From Candidatus Saccharimonadota bacterium (GTDB taxonomy: Bacteria; Patescibacteriota; Gracilibacteria; BD1-5; UBA6164), in the NCBI GenBank assembly GCA_004563595.2, contig CP042461.1:240001-272000 (forward strand): a stretch of DNA of 32,000 nucleotides. The letters run 5' to 3'. Below, one piece after another: positions 2,333 through 30,983 of the stretch. Each line of letters opens with the position of its first letter. Within the stretch, counting starts at the first letter, position 1. The notes beneath the pieces were generated by a model that had not been told where the DNA came from, did no database searches, and saw only the letters and a list, made by a program, of their open reading frames with translations. Both the position numbers and the translations under genes were made by a program.

Positions 2333-2785
2333 ATGAAATATATATATATTATAATGGTTACATTAATTTTAGCTTCATGTTCAAATAATGTAGTGGTAGA
2401 GGATAGCGAAGTAGTTGAAAAAACAACTTCTGATATAGACACTGAATTATTAGTATTAGATACGGAAGATACAGATAATTCTGAAACAGAATCAGAAGAA
2501 GGAAATATCGAAGCTGAAGAAGAGAATATAGAAGAAAAAAAAGTAGTAAAACTCAGTGCTAAATATAACAATCCTCAGCAAGAAGTTGATATGATGGTTA
2601 ATTATTCATTAGATGAAAATGATAAAATTAAAACAATAGAAGTAATAGCTTCAAATTGGGATTTATCAGATTTTAATACAGCTGCTCAAGTTGTAATCGG
2701 GAAAACTTTGAAAGAAGCAAGTGACGCCTCTATTGCGGGTGCTTCATTAACAACTGCTGCTTTTAATAATGCTCTTAAAAAGTAA
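2333..2785 (+). CDS. Lipoprotein with C-terminal FMN-binding (FMN_bind-like) domain, predicted ApbE substrate
   Basis: Signal peptide plus lipobox LILASC, then an acidic linker. C-terminal DASIAGASLTTAAFNNAL (2723-2755 core) matches the D-x-x-[ST]-G-A-[ST] flavinylation motif of NqrC/RnfG-type domains. Confidence 0.7.
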   Translation: MKYIYIIMVTLILASCSNNVVVEDSEVVEKTTSDIDTELLVLDTEDTDNSETESEEGNIEAEEENIEEKKVVKLSAKYNNPQQEVDMMVNYSLDENDKIKTIEVIASNWDLSDFNTAAQVVIGKTLKEASDASIAGASLTTAAFNNALKK

Positions 2786-2797
2786 TATACAACTTTT

Positions 2798-3649
2798 ATG
2801 AGATATTCTCAAGATCTTTTTTGATCGAGATTAAGTATTACAATTCACGCAGAGGATATAGATAAGAATATAGTAGATCATTGTTTTTCAGAAACTGAAA
2901 AATTTGAAAAAAAATACTCTCGATTTATAAAGTGAAATTATTTATATGAACTGAACAAAAATAAAAGCTCTCAAATAGACAGGGAGTTTTTATCAGTTAT
3001 AAATCTATGTAAAAAAGTTTCAGATATAACAGGGTGAATTTTTGATATCACTATACTTCCTTTACTTGAGAATATTGGATATTGAATAGAAAAAGATAAG
3101 CTCGAAGAAAATATTTGATATAAAAATATCGAAATAAATTGACAAAAAATTATTCTGAATAATGGAGCATCAATTGATATTTGAGCCGTTTGAAAATGAT
3201 ATATGGTTGATAAGATATATAATATTTTAGATACCCATTTTCAAAGTTTTATCATAGACTTTTGAGGAGATATTCGAATAAAATGAAAAGAAAATATCTT
3301 TTTAGAGGACCCAAATGATGATAAAAAAGTTATTTGAAGTATTGAACTTGATGATATATCAATTGCATCATCATCAGCTACGAAGAGAAAAACAAGTATA
3401 TGACACCATCTCATAAGTGCAAAAGAGAAGCAATCTCAAAATGATAAAATAGCAGTTTATGTGACACATAAACTCTCCAGCTTTTCTGATATTTTCTCTA
3501 CCGCACTATTTGTCTGCCCACTAGAAAAATCAATCGAAATATTAAATAAAATAGACTGACTTGAAGGACTTATTATAGCAAAAAATGGGGAAATATATAA
3601 AAGTAGAGGTTTTAATTGTAAATTACAGAGCATATGATCAAAGATGTAA
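2798..3649 (+). CDS. apbE: FAD:protein FMN transferase (ApbE family)
   Basis: ATG 2798 is 12 nt after the upstream stop. TAA at 3647-3649. Motifs FDITILPL, IGAVGKGYMVD, DFGGDIR, SIASSS with TGA=Gly. Confidence 0.8.
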
Positions 3650-5133
3650 AAGTGATTGAAGGATGTATTAGTTGTAGAAACTGTGAAACAGTTGCTCCTA
3701 CTACTTTTAAAGTTGCACCAAAATCTAAAGTTATTTCTGACAGCTTTGAAGGAAATGAAGCTGAGATATTGCAAGCGGAGTTAATGTGTCCTGTAAATGT
3801 TATAAAGGTAAATAAAAAGGGAGGATTTACTCTTTCTTTTAATGAAGCAGTTGTACAGAAAAAGAAGTTTCTTACATCTGATATTTTAGAGCTTACATTT
3901 TCAGCATCAAATTTTTCATTTAAACCAGGGCAATATATCTCATTACAAATGAACGATTGGAAATGAAAATTTTCTCGTTCATACTCAATTGCAAGCTATA
4001 ATAGTGGGATGTTTACTTTGACTGTAAAGCTTTTGAGTAAATGAAGGTGAGCAAGATTCTTAAGTTGTTTAAAAATTTGAAAAAAAATTAATTATCTAGG
4101 AGCTTTATGAAATTTTCACTTGAAAAATACTCCAGTTAAAAAGACATTAATAGCAACAGGGACCGGGTTAGCTCCTATGATCTCTATGCTTCAAAATATG
4201 CCAGAGAAAGTAGAAAAAAAGGTTATATATTGAGTGCGATTTGAAAAAGATGTATATTACAAAGAAATATTAGAGAAGTTTGCTAATACTCACGTAACCA
4301 TTCAAGTATCACAACCAGGGAATGATTTCACCTGAAATAAATGAAGAGTAACGGATTGTTTAGATGAAATTTCTTCTGACTCAGAGGTCTATATTTGTGG
4401 GAACCCAAATATGGTTGAATCAGTAAAAAAAGGGTTATTAGAAAGATGACATTCAGAGAACTTAATATTTAATGAAAGCTTCACAGTTTCAACAAATCAT
4501 CCAAGCTTATGAAGGGATATTTTTATAAATGGAAATATCCCATGAATTAATATTTTTTCTTGGCTGGTAATAATCATCTGATTATTTGTCATTCCAAGTT
4601 TATGGTATTCCCATGTTGTGAATAATGCTTTGTATGCTGATTTTTTATTTTTCTGAACATTTATGTCGTTTCTCTGGGACCTGAGTTGGTGGTCAGTTGT
4701 TTTTGTTATGTGAATCAGGCCTCTTTCACATTTGTTCCCCAAAATAGGACTGTTAAGAAAATTAACAAGTTTAAGAAAAGCATTTTGAATACTCTCATCA
4801 TCAATAATTATAACGGTACTCTTATGAAATTTTATACTTGATTCTTCAAATTTTGTAAAATATTTTTCGAGTACAAAATGGGAATTATACTATCCGATTA
4901 TTTGAAGAGTATCTGAAATAACATGATTGATACTTTTATTAACATCAAATAATATATCACAAAGAAAACTTTGAATCTGGTGGAAGAGAATTCAAAGAAG
5001 CTCATACCTCTATTTCATTAGTGGATGAATTATAGCTGCTCAGTATGCACCATTAAAAATATATCCTGCTATGGGAGTTGTGATTTTCTTATGGGTGTTA
5101 TCTGAGTGAGTTACCAGGTTTGGAAGGAACTAA
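3634..5133 (+). CDS. Fusion protein: ferredoxin domain + FNR-like FAD/NAD(P)H oxidoreductase + C-terminal multi-pass membrane domain (ferric-reductase/MsrQ-like?)
   Basis: ATG 3634 overlaps the apbE 3' end by 16 nt. CISCRNCETVAP...MCPVNVI (Fe-S motif). RSYSIAS, GTGLAPM and YICGNPNM (FNR motifs). About 200 aa of hydrophobic helices containing RKLGIWWKR. TAA at 5131-5133. Confidence 0.75.
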
Positions 5134-5145
5134 ATAGATTAATAT

Positions 5146-5194
5146 TAAAAAAAAAGACCAGTTTTACATTGCGGTAAAACTGGTCTTTTTTTTA
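5146..5194. terminator. Bidirectional intrinsic terminator
   Basis: 13-bp perfect stem agaccagttttac / gtaaaactggtct, 6-nt loop, flanked by an A-run and a T-run. Confidence 0.85.
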
Positions 5195-5527: not shown

Positions 5528-8500
5528 TTAAAAATTAATTTTTCTTTCTCTCAAATAAGAGAATAGTATTGGTAAAACAAATAAAGTTAAAGCAATCGAT
5601 GTAATTAATCAACCTACAACAACTATTGCTAATGGTTTTTGTAACTCTGCACCCGTTCATGTACTCCATATCATTGGAAGCAATCATATGACAGAGGTAA
5701 ATGCTGTCATAAGTACTGGTCTCAGCCTTACCATGGCTCAATGAACTACGGATATATGTATTCATTCTTTTGTAATTACCGTAGTTTCAAAATCTTCTTT
5801 TTTAAGAGTTTTTTCATCCATAAGTGGTAATCAAAATTTTTCCCTAAAAGCATTTTCTAGATATAAGATCATAACAATTCCTGTCTCAACTGCATTTCAG
5901 AAAAGAGATATGAATCACACTGAAACAGCTACTGAGAAGTTAAATCAAGATATAAATAAAGCAATTACTCATCAGACTAAACTAAATGGAATACTTAGAG
6001 CAACTATTGCAACAAGTCATATATCTTTGTAAGCCAAAAATAGTATAAAAAGTATTATTAAAATAACCGTTGGAACTACTACTTTTAAAGTATTTTTAGC
6101 TCTCACTTGATTTTCATATTGGCCAGTCCATTCAATAAAATATCATTCTGGTAATTCTAAATTTTCATCAATATATTTTCTTCATTGTTCTACAAATGTT
6201 ACTAAATCAACTCCTCTAACATTCATTTGTACAGCTGATCTTATGACTCAATTTTCACTATTAATGGTAGCAGGTCAATTTTCTAATGATATATTAGCAA
6301 CTTGAGATAATGTAATATTTCAAGATTGACTTGGTATTTCTAAACTTTTTATATCATCTAAACTTTCTCTAAAATTATTTTTTAGTCTTAATTCAATACT
6401 ATATTTCTCTCTTCAAGAAATAGTGGTAGTAATGTTTTTTCAACCTACTCATACTGCAATCGTATCAAGGACATCTCATTTTCTTACACTATACTGGTTT
6501 AATTTTGTTTCATCTAAATCAATCTTTAAATATTTGAGTCATGTTGTTCTGATCGCTGTTGTTCAAAAACCTCCTGGAACATTTCAAAGAAGTTCTTCTG
6601 TCTTTATAGCCAACTCTTCTAGTTTTATAGGGTCATCTCAAAATATTTTGACTCATACTTGTGCTCTAATTCATGTAGAAAGCATATCAATTCTTCAGAT
6701 AATTGGTTGAGTAAATCAATTCCACAAATTATTGATTTTTATTTTACTATTCATCTCATTAATTATATCACTCTTAGTAATTCCTTCTCTCCACTCAGAT
6801 TTTGGTTTTAAAGTAATAATACTTTCTAACATAGCAAGGGGAGCTGGATCAGTAGCAGTAAGAGCTCTTCAAGCTTTTCATACTACTTTTTCTACTTCAG
6901 GTACTTCAGATATTATTCTATTTGATTCTATCAGTAAGTCTCTTGCTCTTCTGTCACTTACATCAGGAACAGTCATTGGCATATACATTATCGATCCTTC
7001 ATCAAGTGGAGGCATAAATTCTGAACCTATTTTGTTAAATAATCAAAATCAAATTATTAGAAGTATTCCACTTATTGAAAGAACTGTTTTTCTCTTTTTT
7101 AATGCATAAATAAGTATCGGTTCATAAACTTTTTGTAATATTCTCACAACTGGTATTTCATGATCTTTTTTCAACTTTCATTTCAGAAAAAATACACAAA
7201 GTACTGGAGCTAAGAATAAAGAGGAAAAGAGAGCTCAAAGCATTGCAAACATATTTGTAAATGCGAGTGGTGAAAATAATTTTCCTTCTTGTCATTCTAG
7301 TGCAAATATTGGTAGAAATGAAAGAATAATGATAAGTATTGCAAACATAAGAGGTCAAGCAACTTCTTTTGTTGATTCAGTAATTATTTTTGTTCTTTCT
7401 TTAAAATTTGAGTTTTCTTTTCAGAGGAGTTTATTATATGCATTCTCAGTTACTACAATAGCAGCATCTACCATTGTTCATATTGCAATTGCAATTCATC
7501 AGAGAGACATAATATTCGATGGAATATGAAACAACTTCATACATAAAAATGTAATAAGGATTCATACCACTAAAGAAACTGCTGTTATAAGAGAAGCTCA
7601 AAAATTCCATAAAAACAAAAACAAAATAACTAATGTAATTAAAAGCTCAGAGGTTAATATTGATTTAAGAGTTGCAATGGATTCATTTATTAAAGTTGTT
7701 CTATCATAAAAAGAAACAATCTTGACTCATTCAGGTAAACTTTTTTCTAGTTCGGTGATTTTTTTCTTAACACCTTCTATTATTTCAAGGGGGTTTTGTT
7801 TGTATCTCATAATAACTATACCTCACACTTTTTCTTCATCTTCATTTGCAAGTATTCATCTTCTAAACTCTGCTCATATTTTTATGTCTGCTATATCTCA
7901 GAGCTTAATTGGTACTCATGTAATATCTTTTATAAAAGTATTTTCTAAATCACTGAGTTCATCTATAAATCATATTCATTCAATTGCTATTTCACTTCAT
8001 CAAATATCAATAACTCTTCAAGAAACATTATTATTACCTTTACTAATAATACTTGATATTTCTTTTAAAGATATATTGTAATTAGATAATTTTAATGGAT
8101 CAATAATAATTTGAAAGTTCTTTTTAAATCATCAAATTGAAGCGACTTCTGCAATTCAAGGAACACTCTGTAATCATAATTTCACATAAAAATCTTGTAG
8201 AGTTCTCAGCTCAGTTAAATCATGGTTATCACTTTCTAGAGTATACATAAAAACTTGTCCTAATCATGTTGCATCAGGTCAAAGAATTGGTTTAATTCAA
8301 GGTGGTAAGTCAGATGAAATCAAACTTAATCTCTCATTTACTCTATCACGAGCAAAATATTCATCTACATTATCTTCAAAGATAACGGTCACCATGGATA
8401 TTCACAATTGACTCATAGCTCTTACATCTCTTACTCAAGCTAAACCTTGCATTCCAATTGTAATGGGATATGTTACCTGGTCTTCAATGTTTGTAGGAGT

Positions 8501-8695
8501 TTGTCATGGCCATCTTGTCATGACTATCACCTGATTTTCTGATAAATCGGGGAGAGCATCTATTGGTGTTTTATTAATGGCTACAACTGAAATAATAGAT
8601 ATTGTAATAAATATTATAACTGTTATGAATGCATTATTAATAAAATAATTAATTAATTTATTCAGCACTCCAGGAGTACTTGCTTCACTGCGCAT
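5528..8695 (-). CDS. Heavy-metal-efflux type RND permease (CusA/CzcA family), 1055 aa
   Basis: N-terminus ...[45 protein letters not shown]. Length is a multiple of 3 with C-terminus [19 protein letters not shown] at 5528-5530. Interior not checked codon by codon. Confidence 0.8.
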
Positions 8696-8701
8696 AATTG
8701 T

Positions 8702-10459
8702 TTATTTAATAAATATAGGCGTTGTAACAACTTTCAGTGTTTCATCAAAACTTCAAGTAACCAGTGAATATTCTCCGTCATCTGAAACAATATTTACATC
8801 ACGAATTCAAAGCTTTCAATTTTCTTTTTTGTAATATACAATTTTTCTTTCCACTTTGTTATAAACACTTGAACTAGGAATTTTAAATACTTCTTTTTTG
8901 GTTTCTAAGTTCACTCTTAGTGTTGATTTATTTGGAAGAGTTATATTTGCATCAACACGAGCTTGAACTGTGATACTAAAGGTCTCTTCATCTATTTCTG
9001 GTGAAATACGATAAATAGTTCAGGTAAAACTAGAATCAATCTTATCTCAGAGAGAAAAAACTATTTCTTTTCATATACCTAGATTTTTCACTACATTTTC
9101 TGGTACATAAAATTTAACCTCTTTTTTCGTAATTCTTGAAAGAGTTGTATCTACTCAAGTTAACCTAAAAGCTTCCATATTTGGAGATATTTTTTCTCAA
9201 ACTTCAATTCATCTCTTAGATATAACTCAACTAAAAGGAGAAATGATTTTATAATCTCATGATTTAATATATTCACTATTTAAATCTGCGTTTGCTACTG
9301 CTATTTCATTTTTTAAAGTAGTAATAGATATATTCTCATTTGCAATGAGTAGGTTTTTTGATTTCTTCAGAGTTTCGAGAGATGCTTTTAGTGTTTCAAG
9401 CTGTAAAGATGTATTTGTTTTTAATTTTGCTAATTCTAAAACCAAATTTTCAGTTTTTTCTTCTTCACTTTTTAATAAAATATTATAATTATTTATGGCA
9501 TCATCATAGCTTTCTTTTTTTTCTGAAAGCTCAGAGTTATATTGGTTTATGAGATTGATGTAAGAAGTAACTTGAGTCTCTGTTGTATCAACTGATATAA
9601 TAGTATTTTTTAAAACCTCTATAAGATTGTTATTTATGGAAGTGAGTTCATTATGTTTGTCTGAAGTGTTGAGACTTCATTTATCAGATTGAAAACTTAC
9701 CACTGTTTCAAGAAGACTATTTTTTAATCAACTATTTTTTGCTCAAAATATATCTGATAGATCATGAGTGTTTATTTTGTCATAATCAATCTCATCTTCA
9801 TTCCCAATATAAAAAATAGGGATAATATTATGAAAAACTTCTTCAGTTTTTATATTTAAGAGTTCTTCTTTTTGGAAAATATTATTTTTACTATTATATA
9901 TCTTTTCATTGAGAGAGGATATACTATTATTCTTAACCTCACCATCTGCTATTTGTTTTTTTAACTTGGTAATTTGAGAGTCAAAGCTTTTAATAGTTTC
10001 AGAGATTATGATTTCTTTTTCGTATATTTTAGCATCAATTTCAGATACTTTTGCATTTTTAACACTTTTTACATCACTTAATAGATTATATTTTGTTGAA
10101 ACAACCGTATCTTTGAGCTTAATTTTTGATTGTCACTCTCCTCATACTCATGGATTGAATAAGAGAGCAAGAGTGTCTCATGCTTTTACTTCATCTCATA
10201 TATCTACGAGAATATCTCTTACCAGAGCATCTCTTCTTGGGTAGATTGATGCTATGTCATTTGAAATAAATTCTCATTTAAAAGAATCATTTTTTGACGT
10301 TCTTTCAGGAAAAGTATACTCATATGTTTTTTTATTCTTTTTTTGATCAGTATTATTAACTATTCCATTCTCAGGAGTATTTGTTGATATAAATGCTCCT
10401 CCTCAAATCAGGAGAGATAACATGATTATAGTTGATAAAGCCCATTTACTTTTCTTCAT
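8702..10459 (-). CDS. Efflux adaptor / membrane-fusion protein (HlyD-like), 585 aa with a very long insert between the lipoyl half-motifs
   Basis: N-terminal membrane anchor. Lipoyl half-motifs VRDILVDIGDEVKAGDTLALL and IISPFSGVISKRGIEVGEKI are separated by about 300 aa of K/E/N/S-rich sequence. Stop is 6 nt before the RND start. Confidence 0.75.
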
Positions 10460-10553
10460 TGATAAAATTTAGGTAACTAAAAAAAACTTCCGTGTTATAG
10501 TTTTTAGACGCATAAATAAACCTGTATTTATCTATCTAAAATAAGGAAGTTCT

Positions 10554-10949
10554 TTAGTTATTATTCTTTATGATACCTGTTAGCAGGGCATATGTATTTT
10601 TTTCTGCTCCTCTTTCTGTTTTATATGGTGGAGATGTCAGTTTTTCTAAACAATTTTCTTTTAACTCCGTTTGAAATATTTCTAAAAAGCTATAATCAAT
10701 AATTTTTCATTTGAGTCCAGTTTCGTTATTTACAGCATGAGTATTTGAAATACTTGAAGCATCATTGAAAGGGTAAATACAACATTTATTTTGATTTTCG
10801 CTACATTTACTACTCATGCCAGCCATATCAGCTTGTTGCATTTCCATGATCATTTCTCATTCTCACACCATCAAATTTGCCATAGCTGTATTTGTATAGC
10901 TGATAGCAAAAATCGAAAGGATTATGAGGAACGAAACTAATTTTTTCAT
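10554..10949 (-). CDS. Secreted Met-rich small protein (131 aa)
   Basis: Signal peptide MKKLVSFLIILSIFAISYTNTAMA followed by NLMVGEGEMIMEMQQADMAGM. First gene of the RND operon. TAA at 10554-10556. Confidence 0.6.
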
Positions 10950-12904: not shown

Positions 12905-12937
12905 TAAAAAAAGCTTACATTTTGTAAGCTTTTTTTA
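12905..12937. terminator. Bidirectional intrinsic terminator
   Basis: aagcttaca ttt tgtaagctt hairpin with flanking A- and T-runs. Overlaps the stop of the minus-strand esterase gene. Confidence 0.75.
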
Positions 12938-14257
12938 CTTCACTATATCAATAAATTTATAAATTCACTTTGCTCATTGGATAGGCCGGCTATGGGGAGT
13001 GTTTCAATAGGTTGAGTATTCTGCACAAAACGCTACTGGGTTTCAATTACTACATTGATTCCAGATCTGACAGTTTAAACCAGATATGTTGATATTTTCT
13101 GCTGCTCAAGTACAGGTATTGATCTCCTTTCTGATTTTGAGAGCATTTTGCCCATCAGAATATGGGACTAGATTATCAGCTTTGTTGTGAAGTATTAGGC
13201 TGGCAACGGGTCAGTTACATTCAGACTTATATCATCCTCATGCCACTGCTGTCATAGTAGCAATTACGTCTCACCTAAGACATGAAAGTTTATTAGAAAA
13301 GTATGCTCCAAGAGAGTGTCATACTATGTGTACTTGACTCTTATCAATACAGAGCGAACTTGATACTTCTGATAACATAGCGTCAATGAAATCTATACTC
13401 TCAGCTTCATGCCAGGTGTATGGACCAGATCAAAGTCATGCGGGGTAGGCTGTAATGACTTCATTTGATGAGTTTTTTTCCCATTTTCCACCTCAGAGTC
13501 ACATATAGTCTCGAACCATAGTATTGCTGTTTGTTCTTCCATGCAAACCAATAACAAGAGGGTATGGCTTTGATGCATCATAATTTTTTGGAAGACTAAG
13601 CAGGTAGGACCTACTCTTATTATTGATAGATAAAAAATTTGTATCTTGAAGGTCTTGAGGACTTGTACATCCTAGACTATTGTAGTTGAGTACTTGTCCT
13701 TGTTGTAAACTTTGTATACGCGTAATAATTTGTGTTGCTTGTCCACGTTTAGCTTGGGTATTTATAGTATATGCATTTTTTGGGATAATTTTATTTTCAT
13801 GAGCAAACTCAATATATCTATCATACCATTGTTCTCACGTCTTTATTTCTGGAACCTCAATATCAAAAGTTTTCATAGTAAGGGCTAATACTTCTAGTAC
13901 TGATACATTTCCATTTGGTCTAAATGTTCCATCAGAGTATCCATGTGTGATATCATTTTTATGAGCATGACAAATATATTTTATATACCACCAATCTTTT
14001 TGTAGATCAGGAAAACATGAACCTCCTATATTCTCCTTGATTTCTGTTTTTGAACTATTGAGAATAATAGCGAGTATTTCAGCTCGAGTAATATTGTTGT
14101 TTGGATGAAAATTTCCATCATCAAAACCATTTACAATACCATCATTTTTGAGCTGTATAATAGATGATTGGTACCAAGAGTTTTCAATATCTGAAAAAGA
14201 TGATGCCTGTATAGGAAGGAATAGAAAAAGAAGTATGCTTGCGATAGTTTTCCTCAT
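12935..14257 (-). CDS. SLH-domain-anchored esterase (PHB-depolymerase/LpqC-like alpha/beta hydrolase)
   Basis: Signal peptide, then two to three SLH-like repeats (FSDIENSWY...GFDDGNFHPNNNITRAE; FPDLQKDWWY...GYSDGTFRPNGNVSVLE). Then LPKNYDASKPYPLVIGLHGRTNSN and nucleophile elbow VGHSLGA. TAA at 12935-12937. Confidence 0.7.
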
Positions 14258-18115: not shown

Positions 18116-18144
18116 TTGACTTTTCATCTTAAAAGTGTTAGTAT
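18116..18144 (+). promoter_or_regulatory. Promoter of the Fic gene (TTGACT-17-TAGTAT with TGn extension)
   Basis: TTGACT at 18116-18121, TAGTAT at 18139-18144, preceded by tgt. Confidence 0.5.
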
Positions 18145-18185
18145 ATGGGTACCTAAAATATAATTATATTTATATTATTTATATT

Positions 18186-19136
18186 ATGTATATTGAAAAA
18201 AAAGATTCTTGATTATTTTTAGCTAAAAAAGGATTTTGAAAGAAATTTCTAGTGAAAATAGAATGAGAGAAAATTACAAAAAATAATATTGTTCAGCTTA
18301 CAGAAAAAGAATGTAGGTTTATCTATGAATCACAAGGCTATAAAGATTTTTCTATAGACATTTATAATAATGACTTATTAGAAGATGTTGTATTTCGATC
18401 AAAGCTATTGAGTAATAACGTAGAGATTCTTTCGTGTATTCAAGAAAATAATATTATGGGTGATATAGAAATAGTTTGAACTTGATTACATATTCAAGCT
18501 TGGTTAGAATATGGTTTTCCAAAGAAGTTTATATATAATTCAAATAACATAGAAGGGAGCAGAATACCAGAAGAAGAGGTAGAAAGAATTATTGAAAATA
18601 AAAAATATAGGTATAAGGTAAAAAATGAAATATTAGAAGTTGAAAACTCAATTAAATCTTGGAGCTTTATAAAAAATGGCTTTCTCTTTAATGAATTAAA
18701 TATTAAAAAGTTATACCATATATTAACAAAAAACTTATTGCAAGAGACGTGAGAAAAATACCCAAGATGATTTAAAAAAGTTTCTAACATTGTAAATAAC
18801 AGTTTAACAACGTCTCCAGAAAATGTATCAACAGAAATTAATAGTCTTATTTATTCATACAAAGAAAATAAAAAAATAGTATTTCCATTACAGCTTGCAT
18901 TTGATTTTCATTTAAAATATGAACAAATTCATCCATTTGAAAATGGGAATGGAAGAACGGGAAGATTTATTATGAATAAAATATTATTACAAAATACCTT
19001 TTTTCCTATGATAGTATTTTCATCGAATAAGCAAGCATATTTTGATGCTATTGCATCATGTGAATCTAAAAATAAAAAGAAATATTATAAATTTATGCTA
19101 GAGCAGTATAAAAAGACATTGGATAAAATAAGCTAA
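18186..19136 (+). CDS. Fic-domain protein (class II, N-terminal inhibitory motif)
   Basis: Fic motif HPFENGNGRTGR (18930-18965). Upstream SNNIEGS matches the [ST]xxxE[GN] auto-inhibition motif. TAA at 19134-19136. Confidence 0.85.
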
Positions 19137-20808: not shown

Positions 20809-21678
20809 TTACTTTTTAAGAATATTTATAGTATCTTCCAATTCTTTTTGCTCTACTGATCATGATAATACGATGAATTCACCTGTTGTATTATTGATAA
20901 TAACACTTGAAGGAGTTGAATTTATTCAAAATTTTCTTCATTGCTCAAACTCTGTTTTTACAAGTTCTAAGTTGCTTTCATTACTGTAACAATCATCAAA
21001 GCTTTTTTCTTCTATGTTAAAGTCTTTTACAATTGTAGCTATATTTTCTAAATCATATCATTCACCACCTCATAGAGTATTTGAGAAAACAGAATCAATA
21101 TAGCTGAGATAATTTTCACCATTACTGAGTTTTTCAATACATTTTCAGGCAAGTGCTTCTTTTTCTGAATTTTTATGTATTGGGAGAGGGAAGTTCTTGA
21201 AGATATAGTTTACATCGTCATTAAACTCGTTTAGAGTACTATCTATTGTTCCATTATTGTGGTAACTAATACAATATGGACATTCAAGATCAGAAAATTC
21301 AATGAATGTGAGAAGAGCTCAAGAATTTCATTTGATATATGATCCTGACTTTAACTCTAAAAGATCTCTCCAATTGAGCATATTTGCTTGATTACTGACT
21401 TCTTTGATTGATTTTTGTCTGATATTATATATATGTTCAGGGTTTTCTTTTTTGAGCTGATGAATATATTTGACCATTTCTTCTTTTTGAAGCTCTTTTA
21501 GTATGGTATAGTTATCTTTTCCTCATATTTCTTTATATTCATTCTCCATAATTGTATTACTCACTTCTATGGATACTTGTTTACTGTAGAAGGCAATTGA
21601 CCATATAATTGAAAGAGTAGAAACAAGTATAGTTATAATAAGAAGAATATTTGTATCTATGTGGATATATTTTTTCAT
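20809..21678 (-). CDS. DsbA-family thiol:disulfide oxidoreductase, membrane-anchored
   Basis: N-terminal TM helix. LTFIEFSDLECPYCISYH thioredoxin-fold CPYC active site. TAA at 20809-20811. Confidence 0.8.
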
Positions 21679-24232: not shown

Positions 24233-24262
24233 TTCCTACATTATCCTCCTTAATTGTATTTT

Positions 24263-25816
24263 ATGCAACAGACAAAAAACAAAGCTTTTACTTTGGTAGA
24301 ATTAATAGTTGTAATTACTATACTCGTTATTCTTTGAACGATAGCTTTTATCTCACTCCAATGATATAGTAAACACGCAAGAAATAGTGCAAGAATTTCA
24401 GATATAAAAAATACTGAAAAAGTACTTGAGTTTTTTGCTTTAAAAACAGGAAAATATCCGTTTCCATGAAACTCAGTAGATGTAACGGCATCATGAGGGA
24501 CCGTTACATTATGGAAGACATGAGAAATGAATGCTGATGTACAAAGACAAGTTGAAAGACTTTCTAAGCTTCCACTTGATCCAAAAACAGGGGAAACTAT
24601 GAAATATGCAACGACATTAAGTAGGAAAGAATATGAATTAAAGTATGATTTTGAACTTGCACAAAATAGTATTACAACTACTAGTTATGCAGAATCAACT
24701 TCACCATACGTGAAATGAAGTTATAATTGATTGTATCTATTAGCAGATAATGCTACGTATTACTGAGTTCCATGACTTCATACATCTTCAGCAATACTTG
24801 ACCTTGCAGTAGATTTTTCATTAAATGATAAAATATTAAATTTTCAAGTATCTCCATTGAGTTATTCATGAGTGACTCTTAACTCATCTAATCTCGAAGC
24901 AAATTACCTGAATTTTTGACTGGCACTTAAGACTGCTTATGAAGGCGAATCTGAACTGAATTATGGACTTTATTTAAAGGTAACAGAGCTTGATGATGCA
25001 ACTGCAGAAAATTTTGCAAAAAGTATTACTTCATGAAAGACTGTACAAAGTGTAAGTGAACCAGAAGAGGAAGTAGTAGTAGTAGTAGTAGTAGTAGTCT
25101 TACCATGATGGAGGGGGCAAGATACTAATTGTGATATTGATGATATTACAATTGGATCACAAGTATGGGCATGATGTAACTCTACGTTGTGAACTGGGGT
25201 TGAGTGGTGAAAACAAGATAATTGAAGTGATGGGACTATAAATCTTTGTTATGATTATGATGGAAATGTTGTTGCTACATGTGCTATATGAGATGCACTT
25301 ATGGCAAGTAACGTAAAGGCTAATGCATGGTTTACTGGAACAAATACAAATTCAGATACTGCAGTAGATAATATATGGTGAAAATTTTATAGCTGGGATA
25401 ATTTAGATACTGATAATGACAACGATATAGATGCTGATGACACAAACTTAGTTTGTGGACAAGGATATCATGTTCCAAGTGATGCGGAATGGGAGATCCT
25501 TGAAACTACTCTAAATGGATGAACAAATTGTAGAAATACTGTAGATTGATGGTTATGTGACGGTTTATGATGGAGTTGATATAATGCTAAAACAACTTGA
25601 AATAATCTTATCCAAGCATTGTGACTTCCTCTTGCTGGCTTCCGTAATACTGATGGGGCTACATTTAGCCATAGAGGGAATCATGCTTATATATGGTTAA
25701 GCACACTAGATGGGGCTTCTGCATATTTTAGAAGCTTCCGTTGGAATCTTTCTCTCGTTTTGCGTAGTACCTATGGTAAGTCATATGGGTTTTCAGTTCG
25801 TTGTATCAAAGATTAA
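24263..25816 (+). CDS. Type IV pilin-like N-terminus fused to a FISUMP (Fibrobacter succinogenes major paralogous) type C-terminal domain
   Basis: MQQTKNKAFTLVELIVVITILVIL prepilin-type leader and hydrophobic helix. C-terminal CGQGYHVPSDAEWEILE ... LPLAGFRN ... YGFSVRCIKD. TAA at 25814-25816. Confidence 0.75.
25073..25096 (+). repeat. (GTA)8 trinucleotide microsatellite inside the pilin-like gene
   Basis: Eight perfect GTA units followed by GTC, in frame, encoding nine consecutive Val between the N-terminal region and the FISUMP domain. Confidence 0.95.
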
Positions 25817-25954: not shown

Positions 25955-25990
25955 CAAAAAAAGAGACACGATATATCGTGTCTCTTTTTA
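25955..25990. terminator. Bidirectional intrinsic terminator
   Basis: 24-nt perfect palindrome agagacacgatatatcgtgtctct flanked by A- and T-runs. Confidence 0.85.
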
Positions 25991-28426
25991 CATCACTCAA
26001 ATTCTATATTCTATTTCTTTACTTACAAATGCTTTATCTCTTCCATATTTCAGTCTAGATAGTTCTGTAAATGCTTTTGATAGTTTTGGATCTCATGTTT
26101 CCAGATAAGGATTTACAGGAATAATTGAGAAAGGAGTGGTTGGTTGATTATCAACTGATAATTTCATCACTGCTTTAAATTTATCCATATTTACCAGGTC
26201 TTGATTTGAAAAAGTTGGAGCATAGTATTTTTCCATGAACTCTCAATCTTCTGGTCAGATTTTGTAACTCATAATACTTCATACATTCCCGAAAATTGCT
26301 TGTTTGAGATTTAGGTTTGATTTTGTAAGCGCATCAGATTTTTCTAATTGTCAGAGATATTGATGGGCTAGAACCATTCACAGACGGTATTTTCTGGCCT
26401 CTGATAGGATTGATTCTATACTTGGAGTTATATAGTTCTGAAATTCATCAATATACATAAAGAAGTCACTTCTTTCTTCTTTTTCAAGATTTTGTCTTCT
26501 CATGGCCGCAATTTGTATCTTACTTACCAATATCAATCAAAGAAGTTCTGAGTTCAAATCTCACAGGATTCATTTACTCAAGTTTACCATAAGAACTTTT
26601 TTATTTTGCATGATATCATAGATGTCAAAACTACTTGTTGTTTGACCGATGATATTTCTCATCATGGTATTGGTTATGAATCAACCAAATTTTGCAGAGA
26701 AATATGGGATCATTTCTTGTTTTTCTTTTTCTCCCATACTCGCATATGTTTGCTCCCACCATGCTTTTACGATAGGATTTTTTATTTGTGTGACGCGAGA
26801 TTTTTGAAATTCTTTATCTGTAAAGAGTCTTACTATATCTGTAATTGCTCAACCTCATTGGAATTCCATGAGAGCAAGGACTCAGTTTCTGAAGTAATCT
26901 TGAAGCCTTGGACCAAAGATCTCGTTTCAGAATAGCTTGATCATTATATTCAGTGCATCAGCCGCAACAAGGTCCATTTCTTCTGGAGAATTACATTCAA
27001 GAAGATTCAGTCCCATAGGTCTATCTGTATCAGAAGGATCAAAAAGGATCACATCATCAGCTCTTTCTCTTGGGATAAATGGGATGAGGTCTTTCACTAA
27101 ATCTCCATGTGGATCAATGACAGCCATTCATTCTCCGTTTGCGAGATCTTGCCTTCCCATAACTTGCATGATACTTGATTTTCAGGTTCCGGTTTGTCAG
27201 ATTACATAAAAATGCCTAAATCTATCTTCTGTTTTTATTTTGATTTCTTTTTTTATACCTCTATATATATTGTGTCAGAGAAGAAGTCATTCTTTTGGTA
27301 TATCATTTGGAGCTTTTACGATTTTGAAGTTTTGCCACTTTATCTCTGGAGTTTTATTATATTTGATGTGAGGTAAGTGAAATAGAGAAGCCAACTCTTC
27401 TGTATTTAAAATCATTTTTTTCAAATAAAATGGTTTTTTAAAATATCTATAGATATAGTTTTTTATGAGAATCTTTTTCTTGTGATTCAGGGTAGAAGAA
27501 AATTTATTAAAGTCTGGATAAGAGAACTGTGAAAAAGCAGAGACTATATTAGTAAGCTCTGTATCAACCATATGACTATCATTTCATGTTGCAATAACTC
27601 TGATAATGACTTCAAAACCTGTCTTATCTCATTTTTCATCTACTGTCTTTGCTCTTTCTTGTGTGAGTGCTGATGTTTCACCTTCATTATTTGTTGGGGT
27701 TGAATCTTCGTCAGTAGAAGAGAATATCACTCCGAGTATCCATATTATAAGCTTAAAAGGATTCAAACTCATTCAGGCCTTCTTTCATTTCATCATGCTG
27801 CTTGATACCTTTGTACAATCTGATTGCCAATCATCATCTATTGGTTTGAGGACGATTTGTATAGCTGCTGACTCATCTTCTTCTAGCTTTGAAAATGCAT
27901 TGGTTATATTATTTATCGGATCTGATTCAAGTTTTTGATACGTTTTAATAGGGTAGAAAAATGCTTTTGCAGCATTGAGGTAGGTTCCTTTGTGATACTT
28001 TCTATTTTTAAAGATATTCACTTCTGTTGTTTCTTCTATAATAGCATCTGAAAAGAATCAGTTGATTTGTTTTTCTACAAGGTGTTTATAGTTTTTTGGG
28101 ATAACAACAAAGAAAAGTATTTCTCATTTGTGAGCGATGTATTCAAAACTGAGAATATCTTGTCAGAGTATTTTTTTTAATATTTTTCCTGAGTAGATAC
28201 TTTTCAGAGATGAAAATAACTGTTCCATAATAGAGATCATTTCTTTGAAATCTTTTGCTGTATCTTGCTTCTCATCAAGATCACTTGTTTTTTTTGGAAG
28301 GGTAACTTTGAGAAAAGTGAGCTTTAGGGTCCTTTTAAAATCCTCTTTTTTTCTCAGAAGTTTTAAAGAAATAAATCATATAATATATATGATTATGAGA
28401 GATATAATTATTACTTGATAGTCCAT
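25988..28426 (-). CDS. Membrane-anchored VirD4/TraD/TraG-like P-loop ATPase (coupling-protein family), 812 aa
   Basis: N-terminal TM helix plus about 330 aa of unknown sequence. Walker A FYVIGQTGTGKSS (two of its Gly are TGA at 27197-27199 and 27182-27184), VIDPHGDL, Walker B FFMYIDEFQ, ARKYRLGMVLAHQYLGQL. TAA at 25988-25990. Confidence 0.8.
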
Positions 28427-29156: not shown

Positions 29157-30983
29157 ATGTTAAAAAAACTTATTCTATTACTTCTCTGTTTCCTACTGTC
29201 TTTTTGAGCGAGTTTTGCTTGAGAGGTGAAAGTAGAAAATATTTTTTCGGATATAGGTACAAATTATAAATATCTAGAAGATCTACAGACCTTGTATGAT
29301 AAGTGAATCATTACTCCAGATTCAAGTGGGAAATTTAACCCATATCAATTATTAACTCGTGAAGAATTTGTATGAATCTTAACGGAAGTAAGTTGTAAAA
29401 AATGTATTAAACCATATACCGTTCAGGAATTGGTGGATACATATTCTGGGAAAGATGTTTATTTTGATATTAATGAACAAAACAAGTATTTTTATTGTAT
29501 TGCAGATGCAAATGATAATTGATATGTAAGTTGATACCATCCATGAACTACTTGTGATAATGGAACAAATAAAGAATGAGAGAGGCCATTCTGTCCACAA
29601 AATAATATCACTTTAGAAGAGTCCATAGCAGTTGTCCTGAGATCATCGAATATATTATCAAACAGTGAGGCAGAAGCTATCAGAATTGAGATAGCAAATG
29701 GATTAATAACTGAAAGTATTGCAGATGATGTATTTCCAATAAATGGAGATGGAAGTGTGAATTCATTTTACCCAGATCTCAGAAAAGCATTAGAGTATGA
29801 AGTCGTGAGTTATGATACATCATGAAATGAAAAGATTTTTAAATTATTAGAAAAAACAAACGGTAAAATTAGACCAAAAAAGCATATCACAAAAGAAGAG
29901 TTTTTACATATAGCATTTGTAGCTCTTCAAGCAAATAGTTGTATTGATATACAAAGAAACACATTGGCCCTTGAGATGAACATTTATGATCAAACTTGTT
30001 CTCAGTGAGACACCAGTTGTGAACTATCATCTCTGAGTAATACAAATAACACTTATGATTTCACATCTGAGATTTGATGAGTATGTGATGCAGGGATCAG
30101 CAGCCAATGATACATTTGGAGGTTTTATAATGAAACTACTGGAGAAGAGATAAAAAAATATTGAGAGTACCTTGATAATTATAGATTTCTGAGTTCTTGA
30201 ACTTGGAAAGTGTTTTTAAGGGTAGTTGATAACTGTGGGAATACTTGAGAAGTTTATAATATGTTGAGTATTGGACTCGATAATCAAGATAATAATACAT
30301 GAGCTGAGAATAACACATGATCAGGTAGTGATATATGATCAGATAATAATTCGTTAAATGTAACGATAGATGTGAATCCTATATTCTGACCTGGTCCATT
30401 AAATATAGATTTAGAATGATTGGTGTCATGATGAGAATGACCATATTCATATGAATGGAATTATTGAGATGGAGGTGGCTGATTTGGAGAAAATGTAAAT
30501 TATATTTTCATAAATGAATGATCATATACCGTTATATTACAAGTAACTGATAAGGATTGAAAAATTTGATATGCCAGTGTTTGAATTCTTGTAAAAGATT
30601 TAGGAGATATAAATACCGATAGTGATGGTGATGGAGTCAGTGATATTTTAGATAGTTGTCCACTTATCAACTGAGCACAAGAAAATAATGGTTGTCCAAT
30701 CTTGGATACCATTTGTCAAAGTGATTCAAACTGTTCTTCTGGTTACTATTGTAAAGAGAGTAATAATAGCAAAAATATATGCGTTCCTAAAGAGGTTTCA
30801 AATAGTTGTGTTTATGATTGATGAACAACGTTTTTCTGAAATGCTGTTTGTAATAGCTGTCCTTGTGGAAATTTCTTAGACTTCAATGCTTCATTGAGAA
30901 ATTGTGATGTCATATTTCCAGCGATCACATCAAAGGATGGAACAGAAATCTACAGTAAATGAAAGAACTATTTAATAAAATAA
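29157..30983 (+). CDS. Secreted cell-surface protein: SLH-like repeat(s), PKD-like domain(s), thrombospondin-type-3 Ca-binding repeat, Cys-rich C-terminus
   Basis: Signal peptide. FSDIGTNYKYLEDLQTLYDKGIITPDSSGKFNPYQLLTREEF (SLH). PYSYEWNYGDGG...YTVILQVTDKDG (PKD). DSDGDGVSDILDSCP (TSP3). TAA at 30981-30983. Confidence 0.75.

Follow-up and report, generated by a model that had tools for sequence, protein, structure and literature searches.

A candidate flavinylation-linked membrane redox module built on a histidine-less MsrQ-family domain in Gracilibacteria and other members of the candidate phyla radiation

The closest described counterparts of the locus analyzed here are the MsrQ-like flavinylation systems, which are mainly actinobacterial, are defined by the Pfam family PF01794, and contain two predicted heme sites with highly conserved histidines (PMC8238504, PMC11334425). 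We examined a 32,000-nucleotide stretch of DNA, hereafter the window, from a Candidatus Saccharimonadota bacterium of the Gracilibacteria (assembly GCA_004563595.2, contig CP042461.1, positions 240,001 to 272,000), in which an initial annotation, made from the sequence alone, had pointed to a three-gene module for ApbE-linked flavinylation. The first gene (g1, 2333–2785, + strand, A9Q91_01215) encodes a 150-residue lipoprotein, the second (g2, 2798–3649, + strand) a 283-residue ApbE-family FAD:protein FMN transferase, and the third (g3, 3634–5133, + strand, A9Q91_01225) a 499-residue fusion of a [4Fe-4S] ferredoxin, an FNR-type reductase, and a six-helix membrane domain resembling the ferric-reductase domain (FRD) and MsrQ. 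Like the MsrQ-like systems, the locus clusters an apbE gene, an FMN_bind gene, and a six-helix FRD/MsrQ-family protein fused to a PF00175 module, and the proposed electron flow likewise runs from NAD(P)H through the membrane domain to an extracytosolic flavin. Unlike them, g3 is not matched by PF01794, its heme-binding histidines are absent, its ApbE has no export signal, and its hosts belong to the candidate phyla radiation (CPR). The domain order also differs, since the NAD-binding domain of MsrQ-like proteins is C-terminal whereas the ferredoxin and FNR modules of g3 are N-terminal. Because PF01794 does not detect its membrane domain, g3 would fall outside the MsrQ-like class under the criterion of the published survey.

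We read g1–g2–g3 as a form of the MsrQ-like, ApbE-associated flavoprotein systems that is specific to the CPR and give the full electron-export scheme a probability of roughly 0.45; in our judgment it is likely that g1, g2, and g3 make up a single membrane redox unit linked to flavinylation. In the full scheme NAD(P)H would reduce the FAD of the g3 FNR module, and the [4Fe-4S] cluster would then hand the electrons on to a cofactor held where the g3 membrane domain faces the cytoplasm. That cofactor would most likely be a flavin, which is plausible because E. coli MsrQ carries a flavocytochrome annotation (its RefSeq name is 'membrane-bound flavocytochrome'). From there, electrons would continue by a heme-independent route to an FMN covalently bound to Ser138 of the surface lipoprotein g1, which would pass them to an external acceptor. 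The ApbE protein g2, acting on the cytoplasmic side, would attach this FMN to the C-terminal motif of g1 before or during export. The membrane-crossing step is the weakest link of the scheme. The initial annotation had proposed a self-contained route from NAD(P)H to a surface flavoprotein; the domains, topology, and operon structure fit this proposal, but the route itself is put in question by the replacement of all three heme-associated histidines in g3 (by V395, Q454, and I467). Its expectation that the organism would have no respiratory chain agrees with the genome paper, which reports this lack (Sieber et al.).

The cytoplasmic part of g3 is readily recognized. The protein is 100% identical to the NCBI entry A9Q91_01225, and its AlphaFold2 model has a mean pLDDT of 88.7. 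A Fer4_13 single-cluster ferredoxin domain (PF13370, 34.3 bits; 3661–3810, + strand, residues 10–59) carries Cys11, Cys14, Cys17, and Cys52-Pro53, and these residues of the CxxCxxC...CP pattern are invariant among 91 homologues. The FNR module (3850–4431, + strand) is made up of FAD_binding_6 (residues 73–162, 37 bits) and NAD_binding_1 (PF00175, residues 172–266, 61.5 bits). It contains the motifs R115-x-Y-S118, G-T-G-L-A-P (176–181), and C255-G-N-P, with R115, Y117, S118, T175, T177, P181, and C255 invariant in the same 91 sequences. A Foldseek search of the g3 model against the PDB returned cytochrome b5 reductase Cbr1, NqrF, and BenC-type reductases at the top (E ~1e-17); with the full-length model the matches are dominated by the FNR module and are uninformative for the membrane domain. 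The Pfam matches to Fer4_13, FAD_binding_6, and NAD_binding_1 confirm the cytoplasmic composition first read from the translation, a CxxCxxC...CP ferredoxin joined to an FAD/NAD(P)H module.

The membrane domain (4546–5124, + strand, residues 305–497) has six helices in the AlphaFold2 model, in keeping with the multi-helix domain of the initial annotation, but the Ferric_reduct profile suggested for it there gives no match. Indeed, no Pfam family, Ferric_reduct included, matches the g3 membrane domain even at E ≤ 10. Seven of 25 relatives match PF01794, with a best E of 6.8e-5, and the only PF01794 score seen among the relatives, 25.4 bits for P0108, lies under the 28-bit cutoff. A profile of the transmembrane family searched against PDB sequences likewise gave noise matches only. 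However, when the family was compared by hhalign with E. coli MsrQ and PF01794-positive proteins, the alignment reached a probability of 98.2% (E 4e-14) over 126 columns, and because of this profile-profile comparison we assign the domain to the ferric-reductase/MsrQ superfamily. The family shares R381, G385, W416, L434, T437, S438, N439, W450, K451, and Y458 with heme-type FRDs, and all of these except W416 sit at or towards the cytoplasmic face. Counts of Lys plus Arg, averaged over 78 members, are 4.2 and 5.1 for the predicted inner loops and 0.2, 1.0, and 0.4 for the outer loops, so by the positive-inside rule the domain is predicted to be N-in, with the ferredoxin–FNR part cytoplasmic and the lipoprotein outside. 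The two are thus placed on opposite sides of the membrane, which is the arrangement that the initial annotation had looked for.

A second group of conserved residues is specific to this family. R362 is present in 78 of 78 members and S388 in 76 of 78, where most heme-type references have Met, and D366, S390, Y460, and F461 belong to the same group. An acidic residue at mid-membrane depth (E/D428; the E428 codon is at 4915–4917, + strand) is found in 75 of 78 members and is replaced by hydrophobic residues in heme-type FRDs. Because E/D428 and S388 are at once family-specific and so strongly conserved, these buried residues argue for a retained functional intramembrane site over decay. They could also be read differently, as part of a redox-driven ion translocator in which E/D428, S388/S390, and Q454 would form an H+ or Na+ site and NAD(P)H- or ferredoxin-driven electron flow would energize the membrane for the F-type ATP synthase. 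The buried acidic residue and the serine cluster would suit such a device; the genome moreover has an ATP synthase with no known source of proton motive force, according to the genome paper, and a similar proposal has been made for a related FRD–rubredoxin–FNR protein of Vampirococcus (PMC8080830). However, the proposal is purely inferential, as we found no homology to known ion-coupled redox pumps, an electron acceptor would still be required, and no ion pumping is known for proteins of the FRD family. We consider an ion-translocating role very unlikely.

At the receiving end of the electron-export scheme, g1 consists of a signal peptide with the lipobox LASC (Cys16), an acidic low-complexity linker (residues ~17–68), and a C-terminal domain (residues ~69–150) with the tail ...DASIAGASLTTAAFNNALKK. 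The predicted FMN phosphoester acceptor is Ser138 in I-A-G-A-S-L-T, encoded by TCA at 2744–2746 (+ strand), the same codon that the initial annotation had singled out for modification. Syntenic loci and searches of databases together yielded 26 relatives, and a second set comprised 30. Word-indexed homologue searches with g1 returned 4 and then 28 close relatives, none of which has a Pfam annotation. All 26 have the lipobox, the acidic low-complexity linker, and a domain of ~80 residues ending in [SA]-G-[GAS]-S-[LI]-x-[ST]-x-A-F, and their only invariant columns are Cys16, Gly136, and Ser138; Ser138 is also invariant in the second set (30/30). FMN_bind is the sole Pfam family that recurs among the relatives (12/26, best E 1.7e-6). 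The profile of the C-terminal domain, run exhaustively with hmmsearch against 1.84 billion representatives, gave 867 matches at E ≤ 1e-3, including long proteins with three to eight tandem matches. When ten of these multi-repeat proteins were scanned, seven proved to be canonical multi-FMN_bind proteins (PF04205, 172–361 bits) and an eighth scored 32 bits. Because the family profile reaches canonical PF04205 proteins in this way, the C-terminal part of g1 is, as judged by profile homology, a genuine but divergent FMN_bind domain. Its AlphaFold2 model (pLDDT 80–94) has a β-β-β-α-α-α order and places Ser138 at the N-terminus of the last helix.

The acceptor motif itself is unusual. Compared with the canonical D-x-x-[S/T]-G-A-[S/T], the g1 motif D-A-S-I-A-G-A-S has its Asp at −7, one position too far upstream, and Ala at −3; the family consensus [SA]-G-[GAS]-S has no Asp at −6, has Ala or Ser at −3, and always uses Ser as the acceptor. 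Of the flavinylation-type motif named in the initial annotation, G-A-S is present, with its Gly and Ser invariant in the family, but the canonical flanking positions are not. According to a 2025 ApbE review, an Asp-to-Ala change in the motif has a minor effect, Ser acceptors are tolerated, and seven-residue motifs suffice for ApbE. We infer that Ser138 is the FMN acceptor of g1 and that the protein is flavinylated there. At one Gracilibacteria locus the normal g1-like gene is closely preceded by a further, truncated g1-like open reading frame (ORF; L010:16–210) in which G-x-S is replaced by 'TGTEEQ'; this is possibly a non-flavinylatable paralogue or a pseudogene.

The identity of g2 is clear, as its match to the Pfam ApbE family PF02424 scores 141.2 bits against a cutoff of 25.6, begins at residue 8, and covers profile positions 1–264 of 266. 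In an alignment with E. coli ApbE/Ftp, g2 retains the motifs for catalysis and metal binding (D.G..KG, N.GGD, A.S, HH, and D...T), and the ApbE-type FMN transferase of the initial annotation is confirmed. However, g2 has no counterpart of the first ~40 residues of E. coli ApbE, which hold its signal peptide, lipobox, and linker, and we found no signal peptide, lipobox, transmembrane or other hydrophobic segment ahead of the g2 ApbE domain, which starts at residue 2–8. This is the rule in the family: about 55 of 63 apbE genes adjoining this type of membrane domain encode a signal-less protein, and the only clear lipoprotein-type ApbE among the 63 loci belongs to a PepSY-type Lentisphaerales locus. 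ApbE is typically a secreted lipoprotein (2025 ApbE review), and the precedents invoked by the initial annotation, NqrC/RnfG and PplA/FmnB, rely on an exported ApbE. Because g2 has no export signal while its presumed target g1 is exported, the predicted localizations of the two conflict. The simplest reconciliation would be that the C-terminal motif of g1 is modified before or during export.

To see how widely the module is distributed, species-representative genomes were scanned with a g3 alignment, which gave 80 loci; the genetic code of each locus was set from in-frame TGA counts inside matched domains, and its ORFs were searched with iterated component profiles. Linkage was counted for the 67 membrane-domain genes that are full-length and have 1 kb or more of sequence upstream. 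An apbE gene is in the locus of 55 of these 67 genes and directly upstream of 49. Among the 30 evaluable loci that encode the full ferredoxin–FNR–membrane fusion, apbE is present at 22 and a g1-like gene at 19, so the trio proposed by the initial annotation does recur together in related genomes. Four architectures can be told apart. In the first, a g1-like gene and apbE accompany the fusion, as in Gracilibacteria and one metagenome-assembled genome (MAG) labelled Absconditabacteria. In the second, found at five Gracilibacteria loci, the g1-like gene and apbE accompany a stand-alone membrane protein. The third, at 22 loci of Saccharibacteria, Paceibacterota, Kaiserbacteria, Parcubacteria, and Minisyncoccia, combines apbE and the membrane protein with a separate 233-residue FNR. 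The fourth has apbE and the membrane protein only and occurs in Moraniibacteriota as well as in MAGs that bear the label Bdellovibrionales or Micavibrio. By these comparisons the module belongs to a CPR-wide family with several architectures and is not peculiar to the window genome.

The histidine-less membrane gene was seen in three MAGs labelled Bdellovibrionales (L059, L064, L065) and one labelled Micavibrio (L082), with apbE adjoining it in L059 and L082. These labels stand for Proteobacteria-type lineages of epibiotic or predatory habit. These occurrences could reflect horizontal transfer among epibionts or mis-binning.

In the split-type loci, a scan of neighboring genes for strict D-x-x-[STA]-G-[AGS]-[ST] found no acceptor. 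The split-type loci of Saccharibacteria and Parcubacteria have an ORF of 115–140 residues that ends 5–10 nt upstream of apbE (L050:1104–1490, L060:4556–4945, L070:4520–4939, and L081:4565–4942; also in L051, L071, and L079). Its product has an N-terminal 'M(K/R)KDT(K/R)xF' with a hydrophobic segment, and a long linker rich in Pro, Val, and Ala leads to a conserved extreme C-terminus that reads '...KKSRRTRAS' or '...TTRAS'. Comparable ORFs in Peregrinibacteria and Peribacteria (L003:2548–3171, and in L034 an ORF ending 10 nt before the apbE at 858) have the ends '...TNTRTS' and '...SRRSRRS'. Because T-R-A-S resembles the S-G-A-[ST] flavinylation core, the '...TRAS' tail may be an alternative, C-terminal-tag acceptor for ApbE.

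Several observations weigh against electron export as we propose it, beginning with the membrane domain. In the alignment the heme-associated H91, H151, and H164 of MsrQ correspond to V395 (codon 4816–4818), Q454 (4993–4995), and I467 (5032–5034; all + strand) of g3, and about 75 of 78 relatives have no histidine at the three positions. Column 395 is mostly Phe, Asn, or Ile (His 3/78), leaving no conserved outer-site ligand visible, and column 467, the other outer-site position, is variable and mostly Tyr, Ile, or Val (His 2/78), while column 454 is Gln in 77 of 78 members (His 1/78). The median number of histidines per membrane domain across the family is one, and none is conserved. By comparison, eight of nine reference FRDs have histidine at all three positions. 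Published work describes the heme-binding histidines as the most conserved residues in the PepSY-like, MsrQ-like, DUF4405, and FezC flavinylation-associated cytochromes, and the g3 membrane-domain family, on its alignment, departs from this rule. As to g1, the single sequence scores 15.6 bits against FMN_bind (PF04205), or 19.0 for the isolated domain, under the gathering cutoff of 22, so the FMN_bind lipoprotein of the initial annotation stands as family-level homology but not as a match of the sequence by itself. A Foldseek search of the g1 model against the PDB gave nothing at E ≤ 1e-3, with RnfG at ranks 37 and 44 (E ~0.5), and g1-family profiles of the full-length protein and the C-terminal domain, searched against PDB sequences, matched only signal peptides, annexin, and other noise. 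As to g2, an apbE mutant was not rescued by ApbE expressed in the cytosol, and the known cytosolic ApbEs act on cytosolic targets (2025 ApbE review). Finally, 8 of the 30 fusion loci have neither apbE nor a g1-like gene nearby.

Two members of the family from Peribacteria/Peregrinibacteria (L034 and L036) keep the histidine ligands, and L034 in addition has a signal-less ApbE, which suggests that the histidine-less family descends from a heme-type ancestor. Given the homology of the membrane domain with MsrQ and the FRDs, one might suppose, as the model of the initial annotation implies, that g3 is still a classical heme-dependent MsrQ-like conduit, in which scavenged heme b sits on non-histidine ligands (for example Met359, Tyr458/460, Tyr467, or Lys451) and the FNR is wired to extracytosolic FMN as in the actinobacterial systems. 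Candidate ligands do exist, as M359 is found in 68 of 78 members, Y458 in 78 of 78, and Tyr is the commonest residue at 467 (38/78). Gracilibacteria also encode histidine-bearing FRD–rubredoxin–FNR proteins, so that heme use in the lineage is plausible. However, about 75 of 78 members have other residues at all three histidine positions together, and no one conserved replacement stands at 395 or 467, whereas histidines are the most conserved residues in all characterized relatives. Furthermore, Y458 and M359 lie at or near the cytoplasmic face, Y458 is shared with heme-type FRDs, and heme is not mentioned in the genome paper (0 occurrences). We regard a retained heme conduit as highly improbable.

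The loss of the histidines also bears on a different reading, in which no electrons cross the membrane at all. The histidine-less domain would then be an anchor or docking platform with a conserved site at its cytoplasmic face, and the ferredoxin–FNR part would act as a membrane-bound ferredoxin:NAD(P)+ oxidoreductase, as the genome paper suggests. Cytoplasmic ApbE would flavinylate a target accessible from the cytoplasm, and g1 would be an accessory flavin-binding or flavin-scavenging lipoprotein. The target could be the membrane protein, because this is the only partner that adjoins apbE in all architectures. All heme-associated histidine positions are lost and the outer-site positions are variable, nearly all of the common invariant residues lie at the cytoplasmic face, and the ApbE has no export signal, like the known cytosolic enzymes that serve cytosolic targets; each of these fits an anchor. 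The universally conserved core of the module is apbE plus the membrane gene, while g1-like genes are absent from the split-type loci, and Sieber et al. name the protein a 'membrane-bound ferredoxin reductase'. However, the g1 family, immediately upstream of apbE, keeps exactly the lipidation Cys and the G-x-S site, and no Ser or Thr in the membrane family fits [S/T]-G-A-[S/T]; the closest, L-S388-A-S390, is inside a helix, and heme-type FRDs with no link to ApbE conserve T437/S438 as well. A near-invariant buried carboxylate would not be expected of a mere anchor, and a role as transmembrane conduits has been proposed for the homologous PepSY and MsrQ-like systems. We hold this alternative to be unlikely.

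Comparison with further known systems places the module between several of them. The nearest non-FRD relatives of g3, P0110 and P0111, are PepSY-like proteins with the same N-terminal ferredoxin–FNR and C-terminal membrane arrangement, 33–34% identical to g3 over the ferredoxin–FNR part. P0111 adjoins a gene for DUF2271, and both PepSY_TM and DUF2271 are published flavinylation-associated components. Unlike g3, however, the PepSY-like proteins have PepSY_TM, a di-heme cytochrome, as their membrane domain and DUF2271 as the acceptor, and the ApbE of one such locus (L039) is a lipoprotein. With E. coli MsrQ (YedZ), NOX, and STEAP, g3 shares the six-helix FRD fold, including R..LG on the third transmembrane helix and TS....(R)KLG..WK on a cytoplasmic loop. 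Like NOX, it carries an attached cytoplasmic FNR-type dehydrogenase, but in g3 the domain order is reversed and there is an extra [4Fe-4S] domain. The partners of MsrQ, NOX, and STEAP are MsrP, O2, or metal, whereas that of g3 would be the presumed flavinylated lipoprotein.

Within the CPR, Vamp_33_45 of Vampirococcus, which joins an FRD, a rubredoxin, and an FNR module, has been proposed to form a novel membrane system for electron transfer or proton motive force in organisms with no respiratory chain (PMC8080830). Like this type, g3 is a CPR membrane protein that combines an FRD, an iron-sulfur-type carrier, and an FNR module, and Vamp-type proteins (P0113–P0120) are present as paralogues in the same lineage. 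Unlike g3, the Vamp_33_45 type keeps all three histidines, has the order membrane domain–rubredoxin–FNR, and does not adjoin apbE or FMN_bind genes. In Gracilibacteria ('Altimarinota'), two FRD–rubredoxin–FNR genes (L087:4001–5518 and L088:4001–5554, encoding P0113 and P0120) share a conserved context of a GlnS-type tRNA synthetase, two small ORFs, and YceG.

The extracellular electron transfer system of Listeria (PplA/FmnB/Ndh2/EetAB) and the NqrC/RnfG proteins resemble the module in pairing an ApbE-family enzyme with an FMN_bind lipoprotein acceptor outside a monoderm cell. They differ in that FmnB/ApbE is an exported lipoprotein and the acceptor motif is the canonical D-x-x-S-G-A-T, and they cross the membrane by quinone with EetAB or by the Nqr/Rnf complex rather than by an FRD-like domain. 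The cytosolic ApbE of Klebsiella pneumoniae, which matures a fumarate reductase, is like g2 in having no signal peptide; its target is a soluble cytoplasmic enzyme, whereas the only recognizable acceptor here is an exported lipoprotein.

The three genes are one operon, tightly packed on the same strand with a 12-nt gap between g1 and g2 and a 16-nt overlap between g2 and g3, exactly as first annotated. g3 ends in TAA, followed by an intrinsic terminator found by a terminator scan (5148–5193, + strand) with a 20-pair stem (five G-C pairs), a 6-nt loop, A8 before, and T8 after, which is potentially bidirectional. The strong terminator initially placed at 5146 is therefore present as a hairpin, but its stem starts at 5148 and 5146 is the start of the A tract. 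A sigma-70-like promoter site, TTGACT-16-TAGAAT (2271–2298, + strand), lies 35 nt upstream of g1. It is a match of 10 out of 12 in a consensus scan only, in an AT-rich region where 38 such sites were found against 30 expected from shuffles. g1 and g2 share a reading frame (465 nt from start to start, with TAA plus 12 nt between them), and a fusion of the two by stop-codon readthrough was considered. This reading was dropped because the frame relation is not kept in L001 and L002 (424 and 427 nt), and the shared frame is probably coincidental.

UGA is a sense codon in the window, where ORFs of at least 100 codons sum to 0.20 of the window length under translation table 11 and to 1.16 under table 4/25. 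Table 11 was rejected for ORF calling, as it fragments every gene. The residues opposite window UGA codons in standard-code homologues are Gly in 48–55% of cases with Trp outside the top five, and for this reason table 25 applies; both results agree with the table-25 genome of the initial annotation. Many public Gracilibacteria protein entries (P0014, P0027, P0062, P0122–P0146, and others) show Trp where the genome has UGA, for example 'ATWTWLAP' at the GTG motif and 'IAWSS' for IAGSS. These entries appear to have been translated with table 4 and not table 25, which weakens profile searches and Pfam annotation for the lineage.

Convergent with the operon is a heavy-metal-type resistance-nodulation-division (RND) system (5528–10949, − strand). 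It comprises a CusA/CzcA-family pump (5528–8695, − strand; TIGR00914, 1038 bits), a CusB/HlyD-like membrane-fusion protein (8702–10459, − strand), and a small secreted Met-rich protein (10554–10949, − strand; 'MIMEMQQADMAGM'). No outer-membrane factor gene was seen in the window. We take the organism to be monoderm. A functional link between the CusA/CzcA operon and the flavinylation module was considered and rejected because the two are convergent and their pairing is not syntenic in other genomes; the RND system is probably unrelated. Other genes of the window with likely roles at the envelope or in host interaction lie at 20809–21678 (−), 24254–25816 (+), 25988–28426 (−), 12935–14257 (−), 29157–30983 (+), and 18135–19136 (+). 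Their products are a DsbA/thioredoxin-like protein anchored in the membrane, a type IV pilin-like protein in which nine Val residues stand in a row, a coupling ATPase resembling TrwB/VirD4, two surface proteins with SLH domains, of which one also has PKD domains, and a Fic-domain protein.

The CPR, or Patescibacteria, make up a large share of bacterial diversity and are described as having no electron-transport chains yet keeping an ATP synthase (Sieber et al.; PMC8080830), and how they handle reducing equivalents and energize their membranes is an open question. The flavinylation survey found such systems to be 'strikingly underrepresented' in the CPR, but dropped components with no signal peptide or lipidation site (PMC8238504). 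Because such a survey would drop signal-less ApbE proteins and PF01794 misses the membrane partner, our results suggest that this underrepresentation is partly an artefact of detection. In addition, g1 has no precomputed Pfam domain. A literature search combining ApbE and Patescibacteria found no paper in the library searched.

In a bolder form of the electron-export scheme, which we consider somewhat unlikely, the ferric-reductase/MsrQ scaffold would serve CPR bacteria, and perhaps also some epibiotic predators, as the basis of a transmembrane redox machine that uses flavins only and no heme. The hemes may have been replaced by a flavin at the cytoplasmic-face site together with the mid-membrane polar site (E/D428, S388/S390, Q454); alternatively, a covalently flavinylated partner may plug the former outer heme pocket. 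Cytoplasmic ApbE may modify C-terminal acceptor motifs before export; the role of acceptor would fall to FMN_bind lipoproteins in Gracilibacteria and, in Saccharibacteria and Parcubacteria, to '...RRTRAS' tails.

If there is no transmembrane transfer, what remains is still a conserved pair of a cytoplasmic ApbE and a membrane protein in many CPR phyla. If heme-free transfer is true, it would be a new solution on a well-studied scaffold, that of NOX, STEAP, and MsrQ, and the three genes would offer a clonable target for studying redox exchange between episymbionts and their hosts. Organisms without respiratory chains could rely on such a machine as their chief membrane redox device, and it might export reducing power to the host or to O2, or energize the membrane.

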